Shown: positions 11,259 through 60,295, counted from the stretch's first letter. The stretch: DNA of 64,000 bases from Candidatus Ratteibacteria bacterium (GCA_041653615.1 JBAZEZ010000003.1:1213-65212); one strand, 5' to 3'. Program-made: numbers and translations. Notes: generated from the sequence alone by a model not told the origin.

Positions 11259-11470
11259 AAAAGGAGAATAAATTAAAAGTTGAAGGCGTTGTTTTGATGG
11301 CGCTGCCTAATGCCAACTTTAAGGTAAAATTAAAGAACGGGCACGAAATTTTAGCTCACGTCAGCGGTAAGATGCGAATGCATTATATCAAAATTTTACC
11401 GAGCGATAAAGTGATTATGGAAATCAGCCCTTACGATTTAACGAAAGGCAGAATCATTCAACGGCAATAA
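11255..11470 (+). CDS. infA: translation initiation factor IF-1
   Basis: 71 aa S1-like; [25 protein letters not shown]. Confidence 0.93.
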
Positions 11471-34471: not shown

Positions 34472-35440
34472 ATGAATATCTTTCTCCCCCTAAAAATTCT
34501 GGCTGATTGGTTTACCTTTCAAGTTTTTCGGGTTCCCCGTGAAACCCTGGCCGCGGAAGCCGTGAATTTTTTCATCTTTGATACGGTCAAAATCTTTATA
34601 CTTCTCCTGGTAATCATTTTCACGGTGTCAATTATCCGTTCATTTTTGCCGCCGGAAAGAGTACGGGCAATTCTACTGCGTAAGAATAAATATGCCGGTA
34701 ACGTCCTGGCCTCTCTGTTAGGTATTATCACCCCGTTTTGCACCTGCAGCGCCATTCCGCTCTTCCTGGGGTTCGTGGAAGCCGGCGTGCCGCTTGGAGT
34801 TACCTTTTCCTTCTTGGTTTCTTCCCCGATGATTAACGAGGTGGCTTTAATTATGCTGGCGGGAATGTTCGGTTGGAAAATCGCCCTGGTCTATATTGTG
34901 AGCGGTTTGATAATCGCTATTGTTTCCGGGATTATTATCGGTTCCCTGAGAGTTGAAAATTTGTTGGAGGATTTTGTTTTACAAAATAAGATAGACGCTT
35001 CTTATTTCGGCACAAAATTATCGTGGCCGGAAAGAATGGCATACGCTAAAAGCTATACCGGTGATATTCTAAAAAAAGTTTGGCCTTACGTGTTGGTTGG
35101 AATCGGGGTAGGCGCCTGGATACACGGTTACGTGCCGGCCAATTTTTTGGCAAAGTTTGCCGGGGCCGGGAAATGGTACGCGGTGCCGCTGGCAACGCTT
35201 ATCGGAATTCCGCTTTACTCCAACGCGGCCGGCATAATTCCGCTGGTCAGCGCTTTGACGGAAAAAGGGGTTAGCCTGGGAACCGTTCTCGCTTTCATGA
35301 TGGCGGTCACTGGGTTGTCCCTGCCTGAATTTTTGATTCTGCGGCGGGTAATGAAAGCGAAACTCGTTTTTATCTTTGCCGGCATTGTGGGTGTCGGAAT
35401 TATTTTTACCGGTTATTTGTTTAACCTGATATTAAAATGA
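34472..35440 (+). CDS. DUF318/ArsP-type permease
   Basis: 322 aa; TPFCTCSAIPLF motif of this permease family; co-located with arsR and redox-active disulfide protein. Confidence 0.75.
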   Translation: MNIFLPLKILADWFTFQVFRVPRETLAAEAVNFFIFDTVKIFILLLVIIFTVSIIRSFLPPERVRAILLRKNKYAGNVLASLLGIITPFCTCSAIPLFLGFVEAGVPLGVTFSFLVSSPMINEVALIMLAGMFGWKIALVYIVSGLIIAIVSGIIIGSLRVENLLEDFVLQNKIDASYFGTKLSWPERMAYAKSYTGDILKKVWPYVLVGIGVGAWIHGYVPANFLAKFAGAGKWYAVPLATLIGIPLYSNAAGIIPLVSALTEKGVSLGTVLAFMMAVTGLSLPEFLILRRVMKAKLVFIFAGIVGVGIIFTGYLFNLILK

Positions 35441-35832
35441 ATAATTCCCTGAAAGAATTAACCGGTATTTTTAAAGCCCTGGGTGACCGGAACCGGTTTC
35501 GAATTGTCAAAATGCTGCAGAAGAGACCGCTTTGCGTCTGCGAAATCAGGGAAATTTTGGGTATCTCTCAGCCGGCTGTTTCCCGTCATGTAAATATCCT
35601 GAAGAACGCCGGACTGATAGAGGATGAAAAGAACGGAGTCTGGAATAATTGTCGGCTTCCCGAAATCATTCAAAATGAATCGGTTGCCGCAATCCTAAAA
35701 TACCTTGAATATCGCGGCAACAAAGACGGCCGAATAATTAGTGATTGCCGGAAAGCGTCTGGCGTTAATCGTAAAGATATTTGCGCCCGAAAGAAGAAAA
35801 GAGTTCCTTCTCCCCTGCGGGGAGAAGGTTAG
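35437..35832 (+). CDS. ArsR/SmtB-family transcriptional regulator
   Basis: 131 aa; wHTH LCVCEIREILGISQPAVSRHVNILKNAGLI. Confidence 0.85.
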   Translation: MNNSLKELTGIFKALGDRNRFRIVKMLQKRPLCVCEIREILGISQPAVSRHVNILKNAGLIEDEKNGVWNNCRLPEIIQNESVAAILKYLEYRGNKDGRIISDCRKASGVNRKDICARKKKRVPSPLRGEG

Positions 35833-35860
35833 GGTGAGAGAGAAGGGGGGGGGAAGATGA
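35810..35860. repeat. palindrome CCTTCTCCCCTGCGGGGAGAAGG followed by a G-run; related to the CTCCCC/GGGGAG element inserted in rimO
   Basis: perfect 9-bp stem hairpin overlapping the arsR stop; same CTCCCC-N4-GGGGAG architecture as 54870-55020. Confidence 0.5.
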
Positions 35861-39329: not shown

Positions 39330-40277
39330 TCAAAATCGCCGCACGAGGTTTTGTTTGTAAAACCGGGCGACTTCCAGACTGTCTATCACCGAAATAATTT
39401 CCTGGTTCCGGCCGGCCGCTCCGCTGGGATTATAAGAGCCGGTGATGACTTTCTTGTTATCAATCAGGAATAGTTTGTAGTGGTTTAAATAATAATTTTT
39501 GTCCCAGACCATGTTCGCACCGGAATCTTTTAGTTCGTGGAAAGCCGTATTATTTCCGGTCCAGCCCTGTTCCAGGGTGCCTGATACCTTAATGCCCCGT
39601 CTGGTTTGTTCTTTTAAAACTTGAATTATTTTGTTATCGGTGAAGACGTAATGAGAGAAAAATATTTCTTTTTGCGCCGATTTTAGTTCTCGTAAAATAG
39701 CGGGACGGCATTCGGGGTTCAAGTAAATTTGAATGGGAATCAACGGGTTGCCTTGAAAGGACGAAGGCGGTTTTTTGTCTGCGATCAGAGAGTTAAAGAC
39801 CTGCCGTAAGTAACCGGCAATTTCCGGCGAGTGAAAAAAGATTAAATCGTTGTCGCTTTGATAGGCAGAATTAAAGGTCAGGTTGAGGGAACCCAGCCAG
39901 GCAATATTTTCATCTATGACGCCAAATTTAACGTGCATCAGTGAAGACGGTTTGGAGTCGGTATAAATAAAATCAAAGGGGAGGGCAGGGGCGCTTTTTG
40001 CCGCTTCATCATCTATCAATAGCCGGATTTTCACGCCCCGGTTTTGAGCCGCCTTCAAGGCGGCGAATATACAGGGTAGGTTGGCTTCAAAGGAAGTTAT
40101 CAGCACTTCCTTTGAAGCCCGATTGATCAGGCCGGTTATTTTAAGAGGTATATCGTTTTTGCGGGAAAGGTAGACTTCGAAATCTTTGGTTACCAGCGGC
40201 TGCGGTTTACCGCACCCGGTTAAAAGAATTAAAGGTATCAGCCAAAGCACAGTGAAAAGCATGTGTCTGAATCGCAT
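39330..40277 (-). CDS. phospholipase D-family lipoprotein (two HKD motifs; cardiolipin synthase or nuclease-like)
   Basis: 315 aa; lipobox LLTGC; HVKFGVID...GSLN and HYKLFLID...GSYN. Confidence 0.75.
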   Translation of the reverse strand: MRFRHMLFTVLWLIPLILLTGCGKPQPLVTKDFEVYLSRKNDIPLKITGLINRASKEVLITSFEANLPCIFAALKAAQNRGVKIRLLIDDEAAKSAPALPFDFIYTDSKPSSLMHVKFGVIDENIAWLGSLNLTFNSAYQSDNDLIFFHSPEIAGYLRQVFNSLIADKKPPSSFQGNPLIPIQIYLNPECRPAILRELKSAQKEIFFSHYVFTDNKIIQVLKEQTRRGIKVSGTLEQGWTGNNTAFHELKDSGANMVWDKNYYLNHYKLFLIDNKKVITGSYNPSGAAGRNQEIISVIDSLEVARFYKQNLVRRF

Positions 40278-52861: not shown

Positions 52862-52995
52862 GGTCCCGTAATTGTTGTGTAGTTGCCGAGCTTGCTCGGC
52901 GCAGTTAATGTAGGGGCGCGATTCATCGCGCCCGTGGGTCGGATGAATCCGACCCCTACGTTTAAAGAGCCAACCAAGGTTGGCCCCTACAATTT
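52862..52995. repeat. multi-hairpin intergenic repeat, copy A (GTTGCCGAGCTTGCTCGGCGC module plus GTAGGGG...CCCCTAC nested palindromes)
   Basis: shares a 23-bp module with 55633-55655 and the TGTAGGGG/CCCCTACA architecture with 55668-55725 and 60198-60290. Confidence 0.7.
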
Positions 52996-53012
52996 AAGGA
53001 CGAAAGGAATCT

Positions 53013-54170
53013 ATGCGCGCTATCAGAAGACTGAAAATCGGTGTGGTAACTGTTTTTTTTCTGTTCGTGGCGACTTTTCTTTTTGCCGAAGCGCCGTCCC
53101 AGGATTTCCATTTTCAAAACGGTGTAAAATTGTACTTGGAAGGGGATAGTGAAGCGGCCCTGGTTGCGCTGCGAAAATCGCTGGAAATAAATCCGGACAG
53201 CCGGGAAACCCGGGAACTAATCAATCTAATTTCCGGAAAGAAAAAGGCCGAACCGATTATAGTTGCGGAGCAAAACCCCGCGTCTCCGATACAGTTTTTA
53301 GAGCCTGAAGAGGCGGTGCAACAGGCAGTCCTGGATACAAAAGAACCCATAGAACCCGTGCTTACCAACAGGTCTTCAGAACCCGCGGTGCTTCCCGGCG
53401 GGTTTTTAGATTACGTGTCTTCCAAAAAAATAACGAAAATCAACATGGTACCATACCGGAATAGTCTTGAAGCAGATTTTTTAGTGGAATATCTTGACCC
53501 GAACGACATTTATGGTTCCTGGGAAAGTTTCGAACTCACCTTTTACCGGAATCAGTCTGACTCTTTAACGTATTTTCTGCAGGGCGGGGTATTCTGGCGG
53601 GATGAGGGAGACGGAATGAGTTTCGGCGCCGGGATTTCTAAAACCTGGAACAAGTATCTGTATACTTCTTCGTCCGTACATGCCGGAACCAACGTTGATT
53701 ACCTTCCCGAAATAAATCTTTCCCACGGTTTTTATTTTAAATTGGGGCAAAACAGAAACAACGTCGTCCCAATAGGTTTTACCTACATTGGTTTCCGCAA
53801 CGGTCACGAAGTGTATGTCGTTTCTTCCGGAATAACCGTTTACCGAACCGGATGGATTTTCGAGTACTTGTTATCCCGAAACCAGAATGAACCCGGCAGC
53901 GTCATTTCTTATTCCCACCTTGCCTCTGTTGCTCACGGACAGGATGGTTTGCAATGGTTGACCCTCACCCTCTCCGCCGGCCAGGATGCCTATCTGGCGA
54001 CGGATTTAACAACACCGGAGGAAGTGAATCAGGATTCTTACGGCGCCGCAATCCGTTTAAAACGGTGGTTGGGAAAGAGTTACGGAGTTATCGGAGAAAT
54101 CAGTTACTTTACTTTGGGTGATTCATACGATAAGTACGGTCTTACCGTCGGCATTTTTACTGAATTTTAA
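53013..54170 (+). CDS. putative outer-membrane beta-barrel protein with an N-terminal TPR-like module (PgaA-like export porin candidate)
   Basis: 385 aa; signal peptide; alternating amphipathic beta-strand pattern; C-terminal ...GIFTEF aromatic terminus; N-terminal HFQNGVKLYLEGD...INP...LISGKK module shared with the PilQ N-terminus. Confidence 0.5.
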   Translation: MRAIRRLKIGVVTVFFLFVATFLFAEAPSQDFHFQNGVKLYLEGDSEAALVALRKSLEINPDSRETRELINLISGKKKAEPIIVAEQNPASPIQFLEPEEAVQQAVLDTKEPIEPVLTNRSSEPAVLPGGFLDYVSSKKITKINMVPYRNSLEADFLVEYLDPNDIYGSWESFELTFYRNQSDSLTYFLQGGVFWRDEGDGMSFGAGISKTWNKYLYTSSSVHAGTNVDYLPEINLSHGFYFKLGQNRNNVVPIGFTYIGFRNGHEVYVVSSGITVYRTGWIFEYLLSRNQNEPGSVISYSHLASVAHGQDGLQWLTLTLSAGQDAYLATDLTTPEEVNQDSYGAAIRLKRWLGKSYGVIGEISYFTLGDSYDKYGLTVGIFTEF

Positions 54171-54183
54171 AGGGCTGGAATTT

Positions 54184-55632
54184 TTGAAAGTTTACGCGCT
54201 GAGCCTGGGATGCCCGAAGAATCTGGTTGACACGGAAAGGTTTCTGGCCGACCTGGTCGGTAAAAGATGGGAAGTGGTCGCGGAGCCGGATGAAGCGGAC
54301 GTTCTTTTCCTGAATACCTGCGCGTTTCTCTCCGAGGCGGTAGTTGAGTCAAAGAAGTTTTTGCGGGATTTGATTTTCGTCAAGAAACGTTTTCCGGAAA
54401 AAAAGATTTATCTGGCCGGCTGTATGGTCAGTCGCATTGGCAAATCGCTGCTATCTGAATTTCCGGAAATTGACCGGTTGATTACCCCTCAGGAGATCGT
54501 TCTTCTTCCTAACCGCTTTCTCTGCACCCCAAGTCACTATGCCTACCTTAAGATTTCCGATGGCTGCGACAATCATTGCCGCTATTGCCTGATTCCCGGA
54601 TTGCGCGGCCCCTTGAAGAGTTACCCGATGGAGCGGTTGATTGCCGAAGCGCGCACGCTGATAGCCGGAGGCGTGCGGGAAATAAATATTTGCGCCCAGG
54701 ATACCACCAGCTATGGGATTGACCTTTACGGAAAACCGGTCTTGGATAAATTGCTGCGGGAAGTTTGCAAAATTGAGGATTTGCGCTGGGTTCGGCTTTT
54801 GTATACCTATCCTACCGGTTATAACGAAGAACTAATAGAAACGCTCGCGGAACTTGCTTCCCCCTCACCCCGCCCTCTCCCCCGTGGGGAGAGGGGGAAT
54901 TCCTCTTTATTATTTCCTCTCCCCGAAAGGAAGAAGATGAATTCTCTTTCGTCCTTTCCTCTCTCCCCGGAGGAGAGGGGGAATACCCTTTTATTATCTC
55001 CTCTCCCCACGGGGGAGAGGATGAAGGTGAGGGGGAGTTTGCCGGGAGGGGTGAGGGGGAAATTGTGTCCCTACCTTGACATCCCGTTGCAGCACGCTTC
55101 CGACCAAATACTTTCGGCGATGAATCGCCACGGCAGCCAAAAAGAATACCGTAAATTAATTGCCAAATTGCGCCGTGCCATTCCGGATTTGATCCTGCGC
55201 ACAACTTTTATGGTCGGCTATCCGGGTGAAACGGAAAATGATTTTCAAATACTGCTGGATTTTGTTGAGGAGATGGAGTTTGAAAAATTAGGTCTTTTTG
55301 CCTATTCGGCGGAAACCGGTACGCCGGCGGCTGATTTACCGCAGGTTCCCCAGCCGCTGAAGGAAGAACGACTGGAAAGGTTAGGAAAAGTCCAGGCGAA
55401 GATTTCGCGGCGTAAATTGAAGAATTTTATTGGATGCGAGGTTGAAGCGGTGGTTGAGGACGTTAATCCGGATGATAAGAAAAAATCAATCGGCCGGACC
55501 CAGTTTGACGCGCCGGAAGTGGACGGTTCAATTATTCTGGACCGCCTGTTCCCGGTCGGGACCTTTGTTCGGGTAAAGGTTATTGGTGTGGATTCGTATG
55601 ACTTGCACGGAGAGGTAATACAAGAATTGTAG
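54184..55632 (+). CDS. rimO: ribosomal protein S12 methylthiotransferase RimO (MiaB-family radical SAM plus TRAM), carrying an in-frame 67-aa insertion
   Basis: MTTase N-domain (SLGCPKN), CDNHCRYC radical-SAM cluster, YLDIPLQHAS, C-terminal TRAM; probable TTG start at 54184 (the track ORF begins at 54118 and overlaps the upstream gene). Confidence 0.85.
   Translation: MKVYALSLGCPKNLVDTERFLADLVGKRWEVVAEPDEADVLFLNTCAFLSEAVVESKKFLRDLIFVKKRFPEKKIYLAGCMVSRIGKSLLSEFPEIDRLITPQEIVLLPNRFLCTPSHYAYLKISDGCDNHCRYCLIPGLRGPLKSYPMERLIAEARTLIAGGVREINICAQDTTSYGIDLYGKPVLDKLLREVCKIEDLRWVRLLYTYPTGYNEELIETLAELASPSPRPLPRGERGNSSLLFPLPERKKMNSLSSFPLSPEERGNTLLLSPLPTGERMKVRGSLPGGVRGKLCPYLDIPLQHASDQILSAMNRHGSQKEYRKLIAKLRRAIPDLILRTTFMVGYPGETENDFQILLDFVEEMEFEKLGLFAYSAETGTPAADLPQVPQPLKEERLERLGKVQAKISRRKLKNFIGCEVEAVVEDVNPDDKKKSIGRTQFDAPEVDGSIILDRLFPVGTFVRVKVIGVDSYDLHGEVIQEL
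54860..55060. mobile_element. 201-bp palindromic MITE-like element (TIRs CCCCCTCACCCC / GGGGTGAGGGGG; three internal CTCTCCCC-N4-GGGGAGAG hairpins) inserted in frame within rimO
   Basis: TIRs at 54860-54872 and 55048-55060; length 201 = 3 x 67 keeps the frame; encoded peptide is low-complexity PLPRGERG...PLPTGER. Confidence 0.7.
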
Positions 55633-55735
55633 TTGCCGAGCTTGCTCGGCGCGGTTGTTTTGTTGTAGGGGAGGGGCTCTGTCCCCTCCCGTGGTGGGCG
55701 GGGATGTAACCCCGCCCCTACATTAACACTTTCCT
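55633..55735. repeat. multi-hairpin intergenic repeat, copy B
   Basis: GTTGCCGAGCTTGCTCGGCGC + TGTAGGGGAGGGGCTCTGTCCCCTCCCG + GGCGGGGATGTAACCCCGCCCCTACATTAA between convergent rimO and pilQ; likely also a bidirectional terminator. Confidence 0.7.
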
Positions 55736-60164: not shown

Positions 60165-60295
60165 GTAGTCGCCCGGCTTGCCGGGCTCCGTTTTTTTCTT
60201 GTAGGGGAGGGGCTTTGTCCCCTCCCGCAGTAGGACAGGCGTCCCGCCTGTCAAATCGCGGGCGGGGATGTAACCCCGCCCCTACATTAAAATTT
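60165..60295. repeat. multi-hairpin intergenic repeat, copy C, in the pilM-pilN spacer
   Basis: GCCCGGCTTGCCGGGC + TGTAGGGGAGGGGCTTTGTCCCCTCCCG + GGCGGGGATGTAACCCCGCCCCTACATTAA; about 90% identical to copy B over the latter modules. Confidence 0.7.

Follow-up and report, generated by a model that had tools for sequence, protein, structure and literature searches.

A BoxC/PIT/TMECO-type repeat array within the reading frame of rimO, probably carried as a translated passenger

The insert and its host protein

How did a palindromic stretch of 201 bp come to be read as part of a conserved enzyme, and what kind of sequence is it? The question is raised by rimO of a Candidatus Ratteibacteria bacterium, which we analysed within a stretch of 64,000 nucleotides (GCA_041653615.1 JBAZEZ010000003.1:1213-65212, here called the window); the source MAG assembly holds NCBI protein MFA5393172.1. 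The gene and its insert lie as follows.

54184-55632, plus strand: rimO coding sequence, with the TTG start chosen by NCBI; an alternative GTG lies at 54118
54859-55059, plus strand: in-frame insert, 201 bp or 67 codons, translated SPSPRPLPRGERGNSSLLFPLPERKKMNSLSSFPLSPEERGNTLLLSPLPTGERMKVRGSLPGGVRG, its frame checked, with a gap here against 4jc0 and relatives

From either the GTG at 54118 or the TTG at 54184 the open reading frame reads through PRPLPRGERGNSSLL...PLPTGERMKVRG to 55632, and its product is ribosomal protein S12 methylthiotransferase with UPF0004, radical-SAM and TRAM domains. The protein reaches the level of the RimO equivalog NCBIfam TIGR01125 (413 bits against a cut-off of 357), has the three-domain architecture and carries both Fe-S cysteine triads, with C10, C46, C80, C128, C132 and C135 all falling in invariant alignment columns (6/6). 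Pfam returns PF00919, PF18693 and PF04055, the last in two stretches, the radical-SAM match being broken in two by the insert. An earlier note on this DNA had called rimO an essential-type gene, which overstates the case, as E. coli rimO null mutants are viable.

Alignment to T. maritima RimO (4jc0) leaves a clean gap of 67 residues, with residues 244->246 of the structure spanning 246->315 of the query, and in ten other RimOs (from L132-L151, regex-anchored) the spacing at this site is fixed at 23-24 residues. The insert site is the helix-to-strand loop ahead of the YLDIPLQH strand of the radical-SAM barrel, which in other RimOs is a fixed short loop. Since YLDIPLQH belongs to the radical-SAM core, the insert lies inside the core domain and not, as had been suggested, between the core and that segment. 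The length first given for it, 201 bp, is correct, but the block sits one base to the left of 54860-55060; that the length is divisible by three follows simply from the open reading frame being intact.

Helix-to-strand loops of a TIM-type barrel lie on the face away from the catalytic strand ends. An AlphaFold2 model of the inserted RimO (mean pLDDT 88, pTM 0.85) is confident outside the insert and gives pLDDT values below 50 for residues 231-287, between the helix at 215-225 and the strand at 294-299. The surface loop that the earlier note had proposed to look for by modelling is thus predicted, floppy and disordered, on an otherwise intact RimO, and the enzyme probably stays active. The insert peptide is rich in Pro, Gly, Ser and Arg, with in-silico tryptic fragments including GNSSLLFPLPER and GNTLLLSPLPTGER. 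A search of a 5.8-billion-protein collection with the 67 residues gave one word-sharing candidate and no scoring match, and thus revealed no other in-frame copies.

Internal architecture and repeat family

Hairpins, triplex motifs and repeats overlap within the insert; hairpins and palindromes are listed without a strand.

54861-54895, minus strand: triplex-motif unit CCCTCTCCCC-ACG-GGGGAGAGGG-CG-GGGTGAGGGG, 10 triads with 0/0 mismatches (triplex finder)
54873-54895: perfect hairpin CCCTCTCCCC-CGT-GGGGAGAGGG, 10-bp stem and 3-nt loop
54874-54957, plus strand: tandem unit 1, 84 bp, 28 codons, PLPRGERGNSSLLFPLPERKKMNSLSSF
54915-54937: degenerate hairpin TCCTCTCCCC-GAAA-GGAAGAAGA, the second hairpin of tandem unit 1
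54925-54958: central imperfect palindrome around GAATTC, 80% complementary
54955-54983: imperfect hairpin TTTCCTCTCTCC-CCGGA-GGAGAGGGGGAA, 83%, the first hairpin of tandem unit 2
54958-55041, plus strand: tandem unit 2, 84 bp, 28 codons, PLSPEERGNTLLLSPLPTGERMKVRGSL
54999-55021: perfect hairpin TCCTCTCCCC-ACG-GGGGAGAGGA, 10-bp stem and 3-nt loop
54999-55034, plus strand: triplex-motif unit TCCTCTCCCC-ACG-GGGGAGAGGA-TGA-AGGTGAGGGG, read as SPLPTGERMKVRG, 10 triads with 0/0 mismatches
55026-55036, plus strand: inner G-box GGTGAGGGGGA, third strand of the plus-strand unit
55050-55060, plus strand: outer G-box GGTGAGGGGGA, pairing with TCCCCCTCACC at 54859-54869

The insert comprises two perfect 10-triad units in inverted orientation, set within two tandem units of ~84 bp plus a duplicated G-box. 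The tandem units are spaced by 84 nt and form a direct repeat of 79% identity over 68 nt (57/84 positions when aligned without gaps), and the hairpin at 54999-55021 is complementary over all 21 nt to that at 54874-54894. The perfect terminal inverted repeats described before are present, CCCCCTCACCCC (54860-54871) and GGGGTGAGGGGG (55048-55059) being complementary over 12 bp and extending to 18 nt at 94%; they are, however, one unit's G-box and the complement of the G-box of its inverted partner, and the G-box of the minus-strand unit is the complement of the left repeat. With up to one mismatch the terminal 12-mer occurs three times in the 64-kb window, against 0.45 expected. Three internal hairpins of the form CTCTCCCC-N4-GGGGAGAG had also been claimed; this pattern has no match, and freeing the loop length yields two perfect hairpins with 3-nt loops, a third that is imperfect (83%) and a fourth that is degenerate. 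The insert is read in a frame that avoids the TGA of GGGTGAGGG.

Folding of the 221-nt region gave z = -6.5 as DNA and -6.2 as RNA, and the triplex-motif finder made 2 matches in the window and none in 100 dinucleotide-shuffled sequences. Rfam models gave only sub-threshold chance matches on the insert region, to microRNA and similar models.

BoxC and PIT repeats reportedly go back to Bachellier et al. in the 1990s and to Hoyne and Maher (2000, 2002), and to our knowledge neither a function nor a mode of spread has been established for the BoxC/TMECO family in the roughly 30 years since it became known. Judged by its sequence, the building block of the insert is such a repeat, with a C-rich arm, a complementary G-rich arm and a mirror G-box, the blocks described by Holder et al. 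2015 (PMC4666352). Our custom finder identified the corresponding architecture, in which a pyrimidine stem is joined through loop 1 (3-6 nt) to a complementary purine stem, and this through a short loop 2 to another purine stem that mirrors it, with G*G:C, A*A:T or T*A:T accepted as triads. The minus-strand unit, CCCTCTCCCC-ACG-GGGGAGAGGG-CG-GGGTGAGGGG, is to be compared with E. coli TMECO no. 3, CCCTCGCCCC-TTT-GGGGAGAGGG-CCG-GGGTGAGGGG (PMC4666352 Table 1). The published TMECO pattern, CCCTCNCCC-N3-6-GGGNGAGGG-N3-GGGNGAGGG (PMC4666352), has no strict match in the window; relaxing loop 2 to 1-6 nt recovers the minus-strand copy, which fits only the relaxed form because its loop 2 is CG (2 nt), all three blocks being present. 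The plus-strand copy is one base out of the TMECO register (TCCTCTCCCC / GGGGAGAGGA).

The likeness extends over the three blocks CCCTC(T/G)CCC(C), GGGGAGAGGG and GGGTGAGGGG with their short variable loops, a mirror symmetry permitting a purine-motif triplex, the arrangement in inverted pairs, of which five are described in E. coli (PMC4666352), and local rearrangement with partial deletion that leaves hairpin-capable remnants. The differences are that E. coli TMECO copies are reported to be always intergenic (PMC4666352) whereas the rimO repeats lie within coding sequence and are translated, that loop 2 here measures 2-5 nt instead of 3, that the host belongs to Omnitrophota/Ratteibacteria while the 2015 survey had the exact pattern in proteobacteria, and that the rimO units form part of a 201-bp array in which 84-bp units are repeated in tandem. 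For the E. coli sequence, in vitro work has demonstrated an intrastrand triplex (Holder et al. 2015, PMC4666352). As far as its sequence indicates, each rimO unit could fold into a hairpin or into a purine-motif intrastrand triplex, and these sequences might also behave as plain hairpins or as G-quadruplex-prone tracts.

The hairpin core occurs at at least 120 loci in reference genomes from many phyla. Among the matches listed for this core, a GG.GAGGG box lies within 25 nt on at least one side in 93 of 147 copies and on both sides in 5, and the strict TMECO pattern has 73 matches in 58 of the 120 reference loci listed. Copies in frame were found in LigA of a Planctomycetota MAG (L028), where the adenylation domain is split, in VgrG of a Stutzerimonas stutzeri isolate (L051), in a Fer4-CCG protein of a Nitrospirota MAG (L034) and in YheS of Rhodanobacter lindaniclasticus DSM 17932 (L097), where query 141->190 corresponds to 9nlh_H residues 323->326. 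The rimO locus adds a case in coding sequence to a repeat family that was already known, and in the literature searched we found no post-2015 paper on coding-region copies of this family.

Within the 64-kb window the family is confined to the rimO copies and one degenerate relative.

35806-35842, plus strand: degenerate unit relative at the 3' end of an ArsR-like gene, with a hairpin at 35806-35828 (CCTTCTCCCC-TGC-GGGGAGAAGG) followed by a degenerate TTAGGGTGAGAGAG

This hairpin, which had been noticed at the arsR stop and placed at 35815-35837, does exist, though at 35806-35828, and it supplies the last nine codons (...VPSPLRGEG) and the stop of the ArsR-like ORF 35437-35832. The triplex finder missed it because its third strand has decayed. 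In related genomes the repeat appears, on sequence grounds, as a dispersed family with intergenic copies: a variant hairpin, ACCTCCCCC-CTGGC-GGGGGAGGT..GGTGGGGG, sits in the rimO genes of L005 and L010 and between genes at L006:4355-4387 and L007:3370-3402, two relatives whose rimO has no insert yet which carry the variant hairpin intergenically, and further intergenic triplex-type units lie at L005:4863, L006:5113 and L006:11384.

Allelic variation at the insertion codon

Comparison with orthologues bears out the central claim of the earlier note, an in-frame palindromic-repeat insertion in rimO. Beyond the gap against 4jc0, relatives at 81-90% protein identity have at this codon nothing, a lone G-box, a 51-bp unit, variant hairpins of 33-36 bp or a 72-bp form that contains a nested hairpin. 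The 51-bp form, a single unit with both boxes, is that of L002, and nested hairpins occur in the inserts of L004, L133 and the window. Five of seven variant inserts fold as DNA hairpins (z -2.5 to -5.5), the two decayed or nested ones giving -1.0 and -1.6 and an uninserted rimO control -0.3. A metagenome scan with RimO added two close relatives only (L132 and L133), the remainder being distant RimOs. A lineage-specific domain was considered and rejected, since the variant peptides are not conserved and disorder is predicted for this part of the protein; no conserved segment shared by the orthologues was seen in the alignment. At the protein level the insert is passenger DNA and not a domain.

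Insert states are patchy across the 10-member clade (94% bootstrap), and the 14 codons upstream of the site track the insert type against the gene tree, with linkage over ~40 bp of flank. Far upstream, L010 shares 88% identity with its sister L282, and beside the site 50%; for the window and L002 the values are 78% far upstream and 86% beside the site. That the insert type moves with its flanks argues for homologous recombination rather than transposition. Two simple routes between alleles were tried and rejected: excision does not account for the uninserted L006, L282 and L283, whose upstream helix is a different haplotype, and no simple direct-repeat deletion in the window or L002 gives the GAA-ATG-GTGAGGGGG of L008 in one step.

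Origin of the array

Taken together, these data suggest that the insert is an in-frame BoxC/PIT/TMECO-type array in a RimO loop, a repeat carried and translated as a passenger at a site that is both permissive and unstable, to which we give a probability of about 0.68. A single unit of ~51 bp with both boxes would have entered the loop in an ancestor of the Ratteibacteria/Omnitrophota RimO clade. The window lineage would then have enlarged it by tandem duplication of the ~84-bp block and the G-box, and other lineages may have gained nested hairpins, exchanged the unit for another triplex-type hairpin, let it decay or lost nearly all of it. Short-patch homologous recombination would have shuffled the alleles between lineages. 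Slippage or template switching at the structure presumably drives the length changes, and genomic instability is reported around TMECO sites, where structure-prone repeats provoke slippage (PMC4666352). The element itself would be neutral or selfish.

A more active history is a tentative, rather improbable alternative, in which BoxC/TMECO repeats are a spreading element that inserts into single-stranded or hairpin DNA and colonises surface loops of conserved genes in many phyla; the rimO loop would then be a recurrent landing pad, at which two subfamilies and the nested hairpins arrived independently.

The earlier note had described the insert as a MITE-like element resembling those of the Rickettsia type. 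Bacterial MITEs (Correia, ERIC, Nezha and others) are small, have terminal inverted repeats and strong secondary structure and are occasionally fused in frame with an ORF, features that the rimO insert shares. We consider it unlikely, however, that a genuine MITE akin to the Rickettsia palindromic elements (RPEs), supplied with a transposase from elsewhere, landed in frame in rimO and later received nested related elements. The perfect 12-bp terminal repeats, the presence/absence polymorphism among orthologues, the nested hairpins of L004, L133 and the window, the two repeat subfamilies at one codon, one of them also intergenic elsewhere, and the many copies in viral or proviral contigs among the matches listed would all suit such an origin, and RPEs are a precedent for in-frame survival (PMC10969869). 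The terminal repeats, though, are integral to a ~35-nt unit, far shorter than a MITE, and the interior is accounted for by two tandem 84-bp units, so that the perfect ends remain but the single 201-bp MITE gives way to an array built by local duplication. No target-site duplication was found at the flanks of the window insert (CTTGCT | element | AAATTG) or of the L002 insert (CTCACT | element | AAATTA), the insert type travels with its flanks, and no transposase, integrase, phage or plasmid association was found for TMECO in the published work (PMC4666352).

The comparison with RPEs holds as a description of the outcome. RPEs are palindromic and lie in frame in housekeeping genes at fold-compatible sites (Ogata et al. 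2000; reviewed in PMC10969869), and the repeats in rimO, as in LigA, VgrG, YheS and the Fer4-CCG protein, are likewise palindromic and in frame at permissive positions, their presence varying between orthologues. Membership of the RPE family does not follow: RPEs are ~100-150 bp long, belong to Rickettsia and have their own consensus families and a conserved peptide, whereas the GC-rich, triplex-type rimO unit measures ~35 nt, occurs in different phyla, is set apart from RPEs by description and is near-identical instead to E. coli TMECO. Coding insertion is moreover the exception here, the copies seen in related genomes being intergenic. REP/BIME elements, with their GTAG tags, are mobilised by RAYTs (Di Nocera et al. 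2013, PMC3733652). The rimO element resembles these short GC-rich extragenic palindromes in its inverted doublets, high copy number and nesting but has no GTAG or CTAC tag at its ends and carries an extra mirror G-box. We know of no link between BoxC/TMECO-type elements and RAYTs. GTAG...CTAC doublets are present elsewhere in the window, at 52910-52959, 55665-55721 and 60201-60285, and flank both sides of the yaiO-rimO pair.

Selection for a nucleic-acid or protein feature is another doubtful explanation, whether as structured mRNA or DNA that slows transcription or translation between the enzyme halves, as a contingency locus switched on and off through length changes, or as a flexible binding loop. 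The arms and inner hairpin stems are identical between the window and L002, although the two rimO genes agree at 79% of positions overall and 60% of third positions, and such perfect conservation could reflect selection for function rather than neutrality. An insert also persists at this codon in most clade members, the sister-clade L011 keeping a decayed trace (TTTTCACCTTTC) together with a nested hairpin; L133 has an out-of-frame version; and the RNA structure is strong (-125 kcal/mol, z = -6.2). Set against this, the variant peptides are unrelated and the insert is predicted to be disordered, no insert is present in several close relatives, L133 is frameshifted a second time elsewhere and resembles a low-quality contig, the repeat turns up in unrelated genes and, for the most part, in intergenic DNA, and no regulatory role was found for TMECO in E. 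coli (PMC4666352). The insert differs in the same respect from PARCELs, palindromic repeats translated in proteins of distant microbes that form an amphipathic module in surface proteins (PMC2996958) and appear to be selected as protein, whereas the rimO peptide is unconserved and predicted to be disordered.

A local origin, in which a G-rich VRG-coding stretch (GGTGAGGGGGA, as in L008) seeded a palindrome by fold-back or template switching and duplications built the array, is highly improbable. L008, the closest relative, has only the 11-mer G-box, GAA-ATG-GTGAGGGGGAAG, and this lone GGTGAGGGGGA may have been a target already in place rather than what is left of a unit; at the corresponding position P0126 has AEMVKGKV, tandem duplication accounts for most of the interior, and structure-prone repeats provoke slippage (PMC4666352). 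The hairpin-plus-box unit is, however, near-identical to copies in distant phyla, which makes independent local invention very unlikely, and an intergenic copy in another genome is identical to the second subfamily at this codon. L008 also shares its flank haplotype with the unit-bearing alleles and groups within insert-bearing sequences at 100% bootstrap, which fits a deletion derivative.

We give practically no credence to an assembly or sequencing artefact or a dead gene, even though GC-rich palindromic repeats are hard for short-read assemblers, several cluster members are fragments and L133 is frameshifted, since the gene and insert are identical in a 130 kb NCBI MAG contig and an 18.6 kb contig of an independent ENA assembly (L001, ERZ27247358; 99.97% identity across 17.6 kb), neither the reading frame nor any catalytic motif is disrupted, homologous inserts lie at the same codon in samples of other studies, and in-frame copies exist in isolate genomes.

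Returning to a translated passenger repeat as the preferred reading, its interest lies in repeats described as strictly intergenic in E. coli being carried in frame and translated in conserved genes. One permissive loop can host a long-lived, fast-changing repeat cassette, with short-patch recombination exchanging its alleles. Inserts of this kind break up domain matches, as with the Pfam radical-SAM match, create spurious low-complexity peptides (PLPxGER...VRG) in protein databases and can break metagenome assemblies. Sampled more densely, the rimO allelic series could help to show how these repeats arise and are lost, and were the repeats actively spreading, it would offer a natural series of filled, nested and emptied sites that reveals the insertion mechanism.

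The insert in rimO and its repeat family

The gene at 54118/54184..55632 was identified as rimO by the TIGR01125 equivalog (413 bits, cut-off 357) and by domain matches, with UPF0004, radical-SAM and TRAM domains all present by Pfam, although the radical-SAM match is broken into two stretches. An in-frame insertion of a palindromic repeat, as the earlier note had proposed, was confirmed: alignment places residues 246 to 315 opposite only residues 244 to 246 of T. maritima RimO (4jc0), and the distance between the WxRxxY strand and DxPxQH, anchored by regular expression, is constant at 23-24 residues in ten other RimOs (retrieved loci L132-L151). An independent ENA contig (99.97% identity over 17.6 kb) holds an identical rimO gene.

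Features of the insert and its decayed relative
54859-55059: 67 extra in-frame codons (frame check)
54860-71 and 55048-59: perfect terminal inverted repeats, 12 bp
54873-95 and 54999-55021: perfect 10-bp hairpins with 3-nt loops
54861-54895, minus strand: perfect 10-triad unit (triplex-architecture finder)
54999-55034, plus strand: perfect 10-triad unit (same finder)
35806-35842: decayed relative of the unit, covering the last nine codons and stop codon of an ArsR-like gene

The two perfect hairpins are mutually complementary, and the insert also holds one imperfect and one degenerate hairpin, two tandem units of ~84 bp (28 codons each) and, at its right end, two copies of GGTGAGGGGGA. Its folding z against shuffles is −6.5 as DNA and −6.2 as RNA. 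The perfect terminal inverted repeats stood as first described, as did the remaining features, but the original coordinates were one base off and the 4-nt hairpin loop was wrong; the hairpin at the arsR end is present, at 35806-35842 and not 35815-35837. The insertion site carries no target-site duplication, and there was no sign of transposition.

Holder et al. (2015, PMC4666352) give the TMECO consensus as CCCTCNCCC-N3-6-GGGNGAGGG-N3-GGGNGAGGG and report that the repeat forms a purine-motif intrastrand triplex in vitro, that the 23 copies of E. coli K-12 are exclusively intergenic and frequently in inverted pairs, and that local rearrangement is raised near repeat sites. A finder written for this architecture (pyrimidine stem, purine stem, mirror purine stem) was run on the window and 100 shuffles; the window has two 10-triad units inverted relative to each other inside rimO, and the shuffles have none. 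The minus-strand copy is nearly base-for-base equal to E. coli TMECO no. 3 and misses the strict published pattern only because its loop 2 is 2 nt. Judged by sequence, the repeat inside rimO is a BoxC / PIT / TMECO repeat. The terminal inverted repeats are thus G-box sequence: one is a unit's G-box, the other the complement of the box in the inverted partner. Neither a single 201-bp MITE nor identity with Rickettsia-type palindromic elements was borne out; the insert consists of inverted TMECO units and two tandem ~84-bp units.

A scan of reference genomes with the hairpin core CCTCTCCCC-NNN-GGGGAGAGG gave, among the matches listed, 147 copies in at least 120 loci, from Alpha-, Gamma- and Deltaproteobacteria, Planctomycetota, Acidobacteriota, Nitrospirota, Chloroflexota, Rokubacteria, Methylomirabilia, Omnitrophota and Enterobacteriaceae. 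Of these 147 listed copies, 93 have a GG.GAGGG box no more than 25 nt from the hairpin on at least one side; only 5 have one on both. The core is also frequent among the IMG/VR viral and proviral contigs listed (L162-L281, for example L204 and L205), some with 6 copies in 5 kb or 7 in 14 kb; many of them may in fact be prophage stretches containing host-like DNA. The 2015 paper found no association with transposons, phages or plasmids (PMC4666352).

Coding copies and their effect on the protein

An AlphaFold2 model of RimO built with 57 homologues (pLDDT 88, pTM 0.85) puts residues 231-287, located after helix 215-225 and before strand 294-299, under 50; the insert is therefore predicted to be disordered within a helix-to-strand loop, with the rest confident. 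In TIM-type barrels the face that holds such loops is the non-catalytic one. RimO here keeps all six cluster cysteines, and the frame in use, PLPxGER..VRG, bypasses the TGA in GGG-TGA-GGG. The enzyme is probably active, with the insert as a floppy loop.

The 147 listed copies were screened for stop-to-stop ORFs extending 120 codons or more to each side, and in four proteins an in-frame copy was verified by comparison with Pfam and PDB.

Confirmed in-frame copies in other proteins
L028, Planctomycetota MAG: NAD-dependent DNA ligase LigA, adenylation domain split
L051, Stutzerimonas stutzeri SD25545: VgrG, between the gpD and gp5 OB domains
L097, Rhodanobacter lindaniclasticus DSM 17932: ABC-F protein YheS, two units where the second ATPase domain begins (residues 141 to 190 align with 9nlh_H residues 323 to 326)
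L034, Nitrospirota MAG: Fer4-CCG protein, interdomain linker

Coding copies thus make up at least 4 of the 147 sampled, and two of the four proteins are from isolate genomes. No account of in-frame coding copies was found in the literature searched on this family.

Allelic states and probable exchange at the rimO codon

In a clade of ten RimOs (81-90% identity, 94% bootstrap) all states occur at exactly the insertion codon.

States at the insertion codon
L006, L007, L282, L283: no insert
L008, the closest relative: lone GTGAGGGGG, translated MVRG (MVKG in the retrieved RimO P0126)
L002: one hairpin between both boxes, 51 bp
L005, L009, L010: different hairpin, ACCTCCCCC-CTGGC-GGGGGAGG...GGTGGGGG, a triplex-type motif in its own right
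L004: the hairpin of L005/L009/L010 plus a nested hairpin
L133, low-quality frameshifted contig: L002 type plus another nested hairpin

The peptides encoded by the variant inserts are mutually unrelated which, with these varied states, marks the segment as an in-frame repeat and not a domain. Folding z is −2.5 to −5.5 in five of seven variant inserts, −1.0 and −1.6 in the two that are decayed or nested, and −0.3 in an uninserted control. In L133 (279-450, JGI Ga0182022_1205917) the nested hairpin, CCCTTACCG-ATTCAA-CGGTAAGGG, lies with L002-type arms at the same codon; the frame shifts within the insert and once more further upstream; either the gene is decaying or the contig has low coverage. 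A decayed left arm with a nested AT-rich hairpin persists in the sister clade (L011), so the insertion predates the ten-member clade.

The hairpin of L005, L009 and L010 is also intergenic in L006 and L007, both with an empty rimO, indicating that the rimO inserts are copies of dispersed repeat subfamilies; the remaining triplex-type units in the genomes of such relatives are intergenic throughout. A third triplex-type subfamily, TCCCCCCT-GACA-AGGGGGGG-CGAG-GGGGGGGT, is intergenic at L006:5113-5141 and 11384-11415 and in L007, with one copy directly downstream of the uninserted rimO.

Over the 14 codons before the site the alleles fall into three haplotypes (NRQLIEALQN, NEELIETLAEL and NEELIATLAELT) that group by insert type and not by the gene tree, which indicates short-patch recombination among lineages that co-exist. 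Identity between L010 and its sister L282 falls from 88% far upstream to 50% beside the site, where L282 is 78-86% identical to the other empty alleles; between the window and L002, both with the CCTCTCCCC-type unit, it rises from 78% to 86%. These patterns indicate that short-patch homologous recombination swaps the cassette together with some 40 bp of flank, and that the empty alleles are a separate haplotype, not excision products. L008 shares the flank of the window and L002 and is best explained by deletion of nearly the whole insert. Between the latter two, 40% of third codon positions differ and arms and stems are identical, which fits recent exchange, homogenisation or DNA-level constraint.

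Neighbouring repeats and overall reading

Three GTAG...CTAC palindrome doublets form a family distinct from the unit inside rimO and agree with the GTAG-tagged REP superfamily (PMC3733652).

GTAG doublets
52910-52959
55665-55721
60201-60285, with a third hairpin, GACAGGCG-TCC-CGCCTGTC, nested between its two

One example reads GTAGGGGAGGGG-CTCTGT-CCCCTCCC-GTGGT-GGGCGGGG-ATGTAA-CCCCGCCCCTAC, and doublets lie on either side of the yaiO-rimO gene pair. An exact 23-nt repeat, TAGTTGCCGAGCTTGCTCGGCGC, which includes the small hairpin GCCGAGC-TTG-CTCGGC, occurs at 52880-52902 and 55630-55652 (two seen, none expected), the latter copy starting with the rimO stop codon; each copy is just upstream of a doublet and may therefore belong to a larger composite repeat. 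Apart from these repeats, the longest perfect hairpin of the window is a 15-bp inverted repeat at 40083-40119, GGCTTCAAAGGAAGT-TATCAGC-ACTTCCTTTGAAGCC. An 88-aa ORF (52883-53149, plus strand, starting MPSLLGAVNVGARFIAPVGRMNPTPT) crosses a doublet and almost certainly reflects spurious translation of repeat DNA.

An active, structure-targeted element with rimO as its landing pad appears unlikely. We favour, with a probability of about 0.68, an array of a known repeat family, translated as a passenger in a permissive, unstable loop whose variety would stem from duplication, nested hairpins, decay, deletion and short-patch recombination. Peptides from repeat DNA, including PLPxGER..VRG, probably contaminate protein databases.
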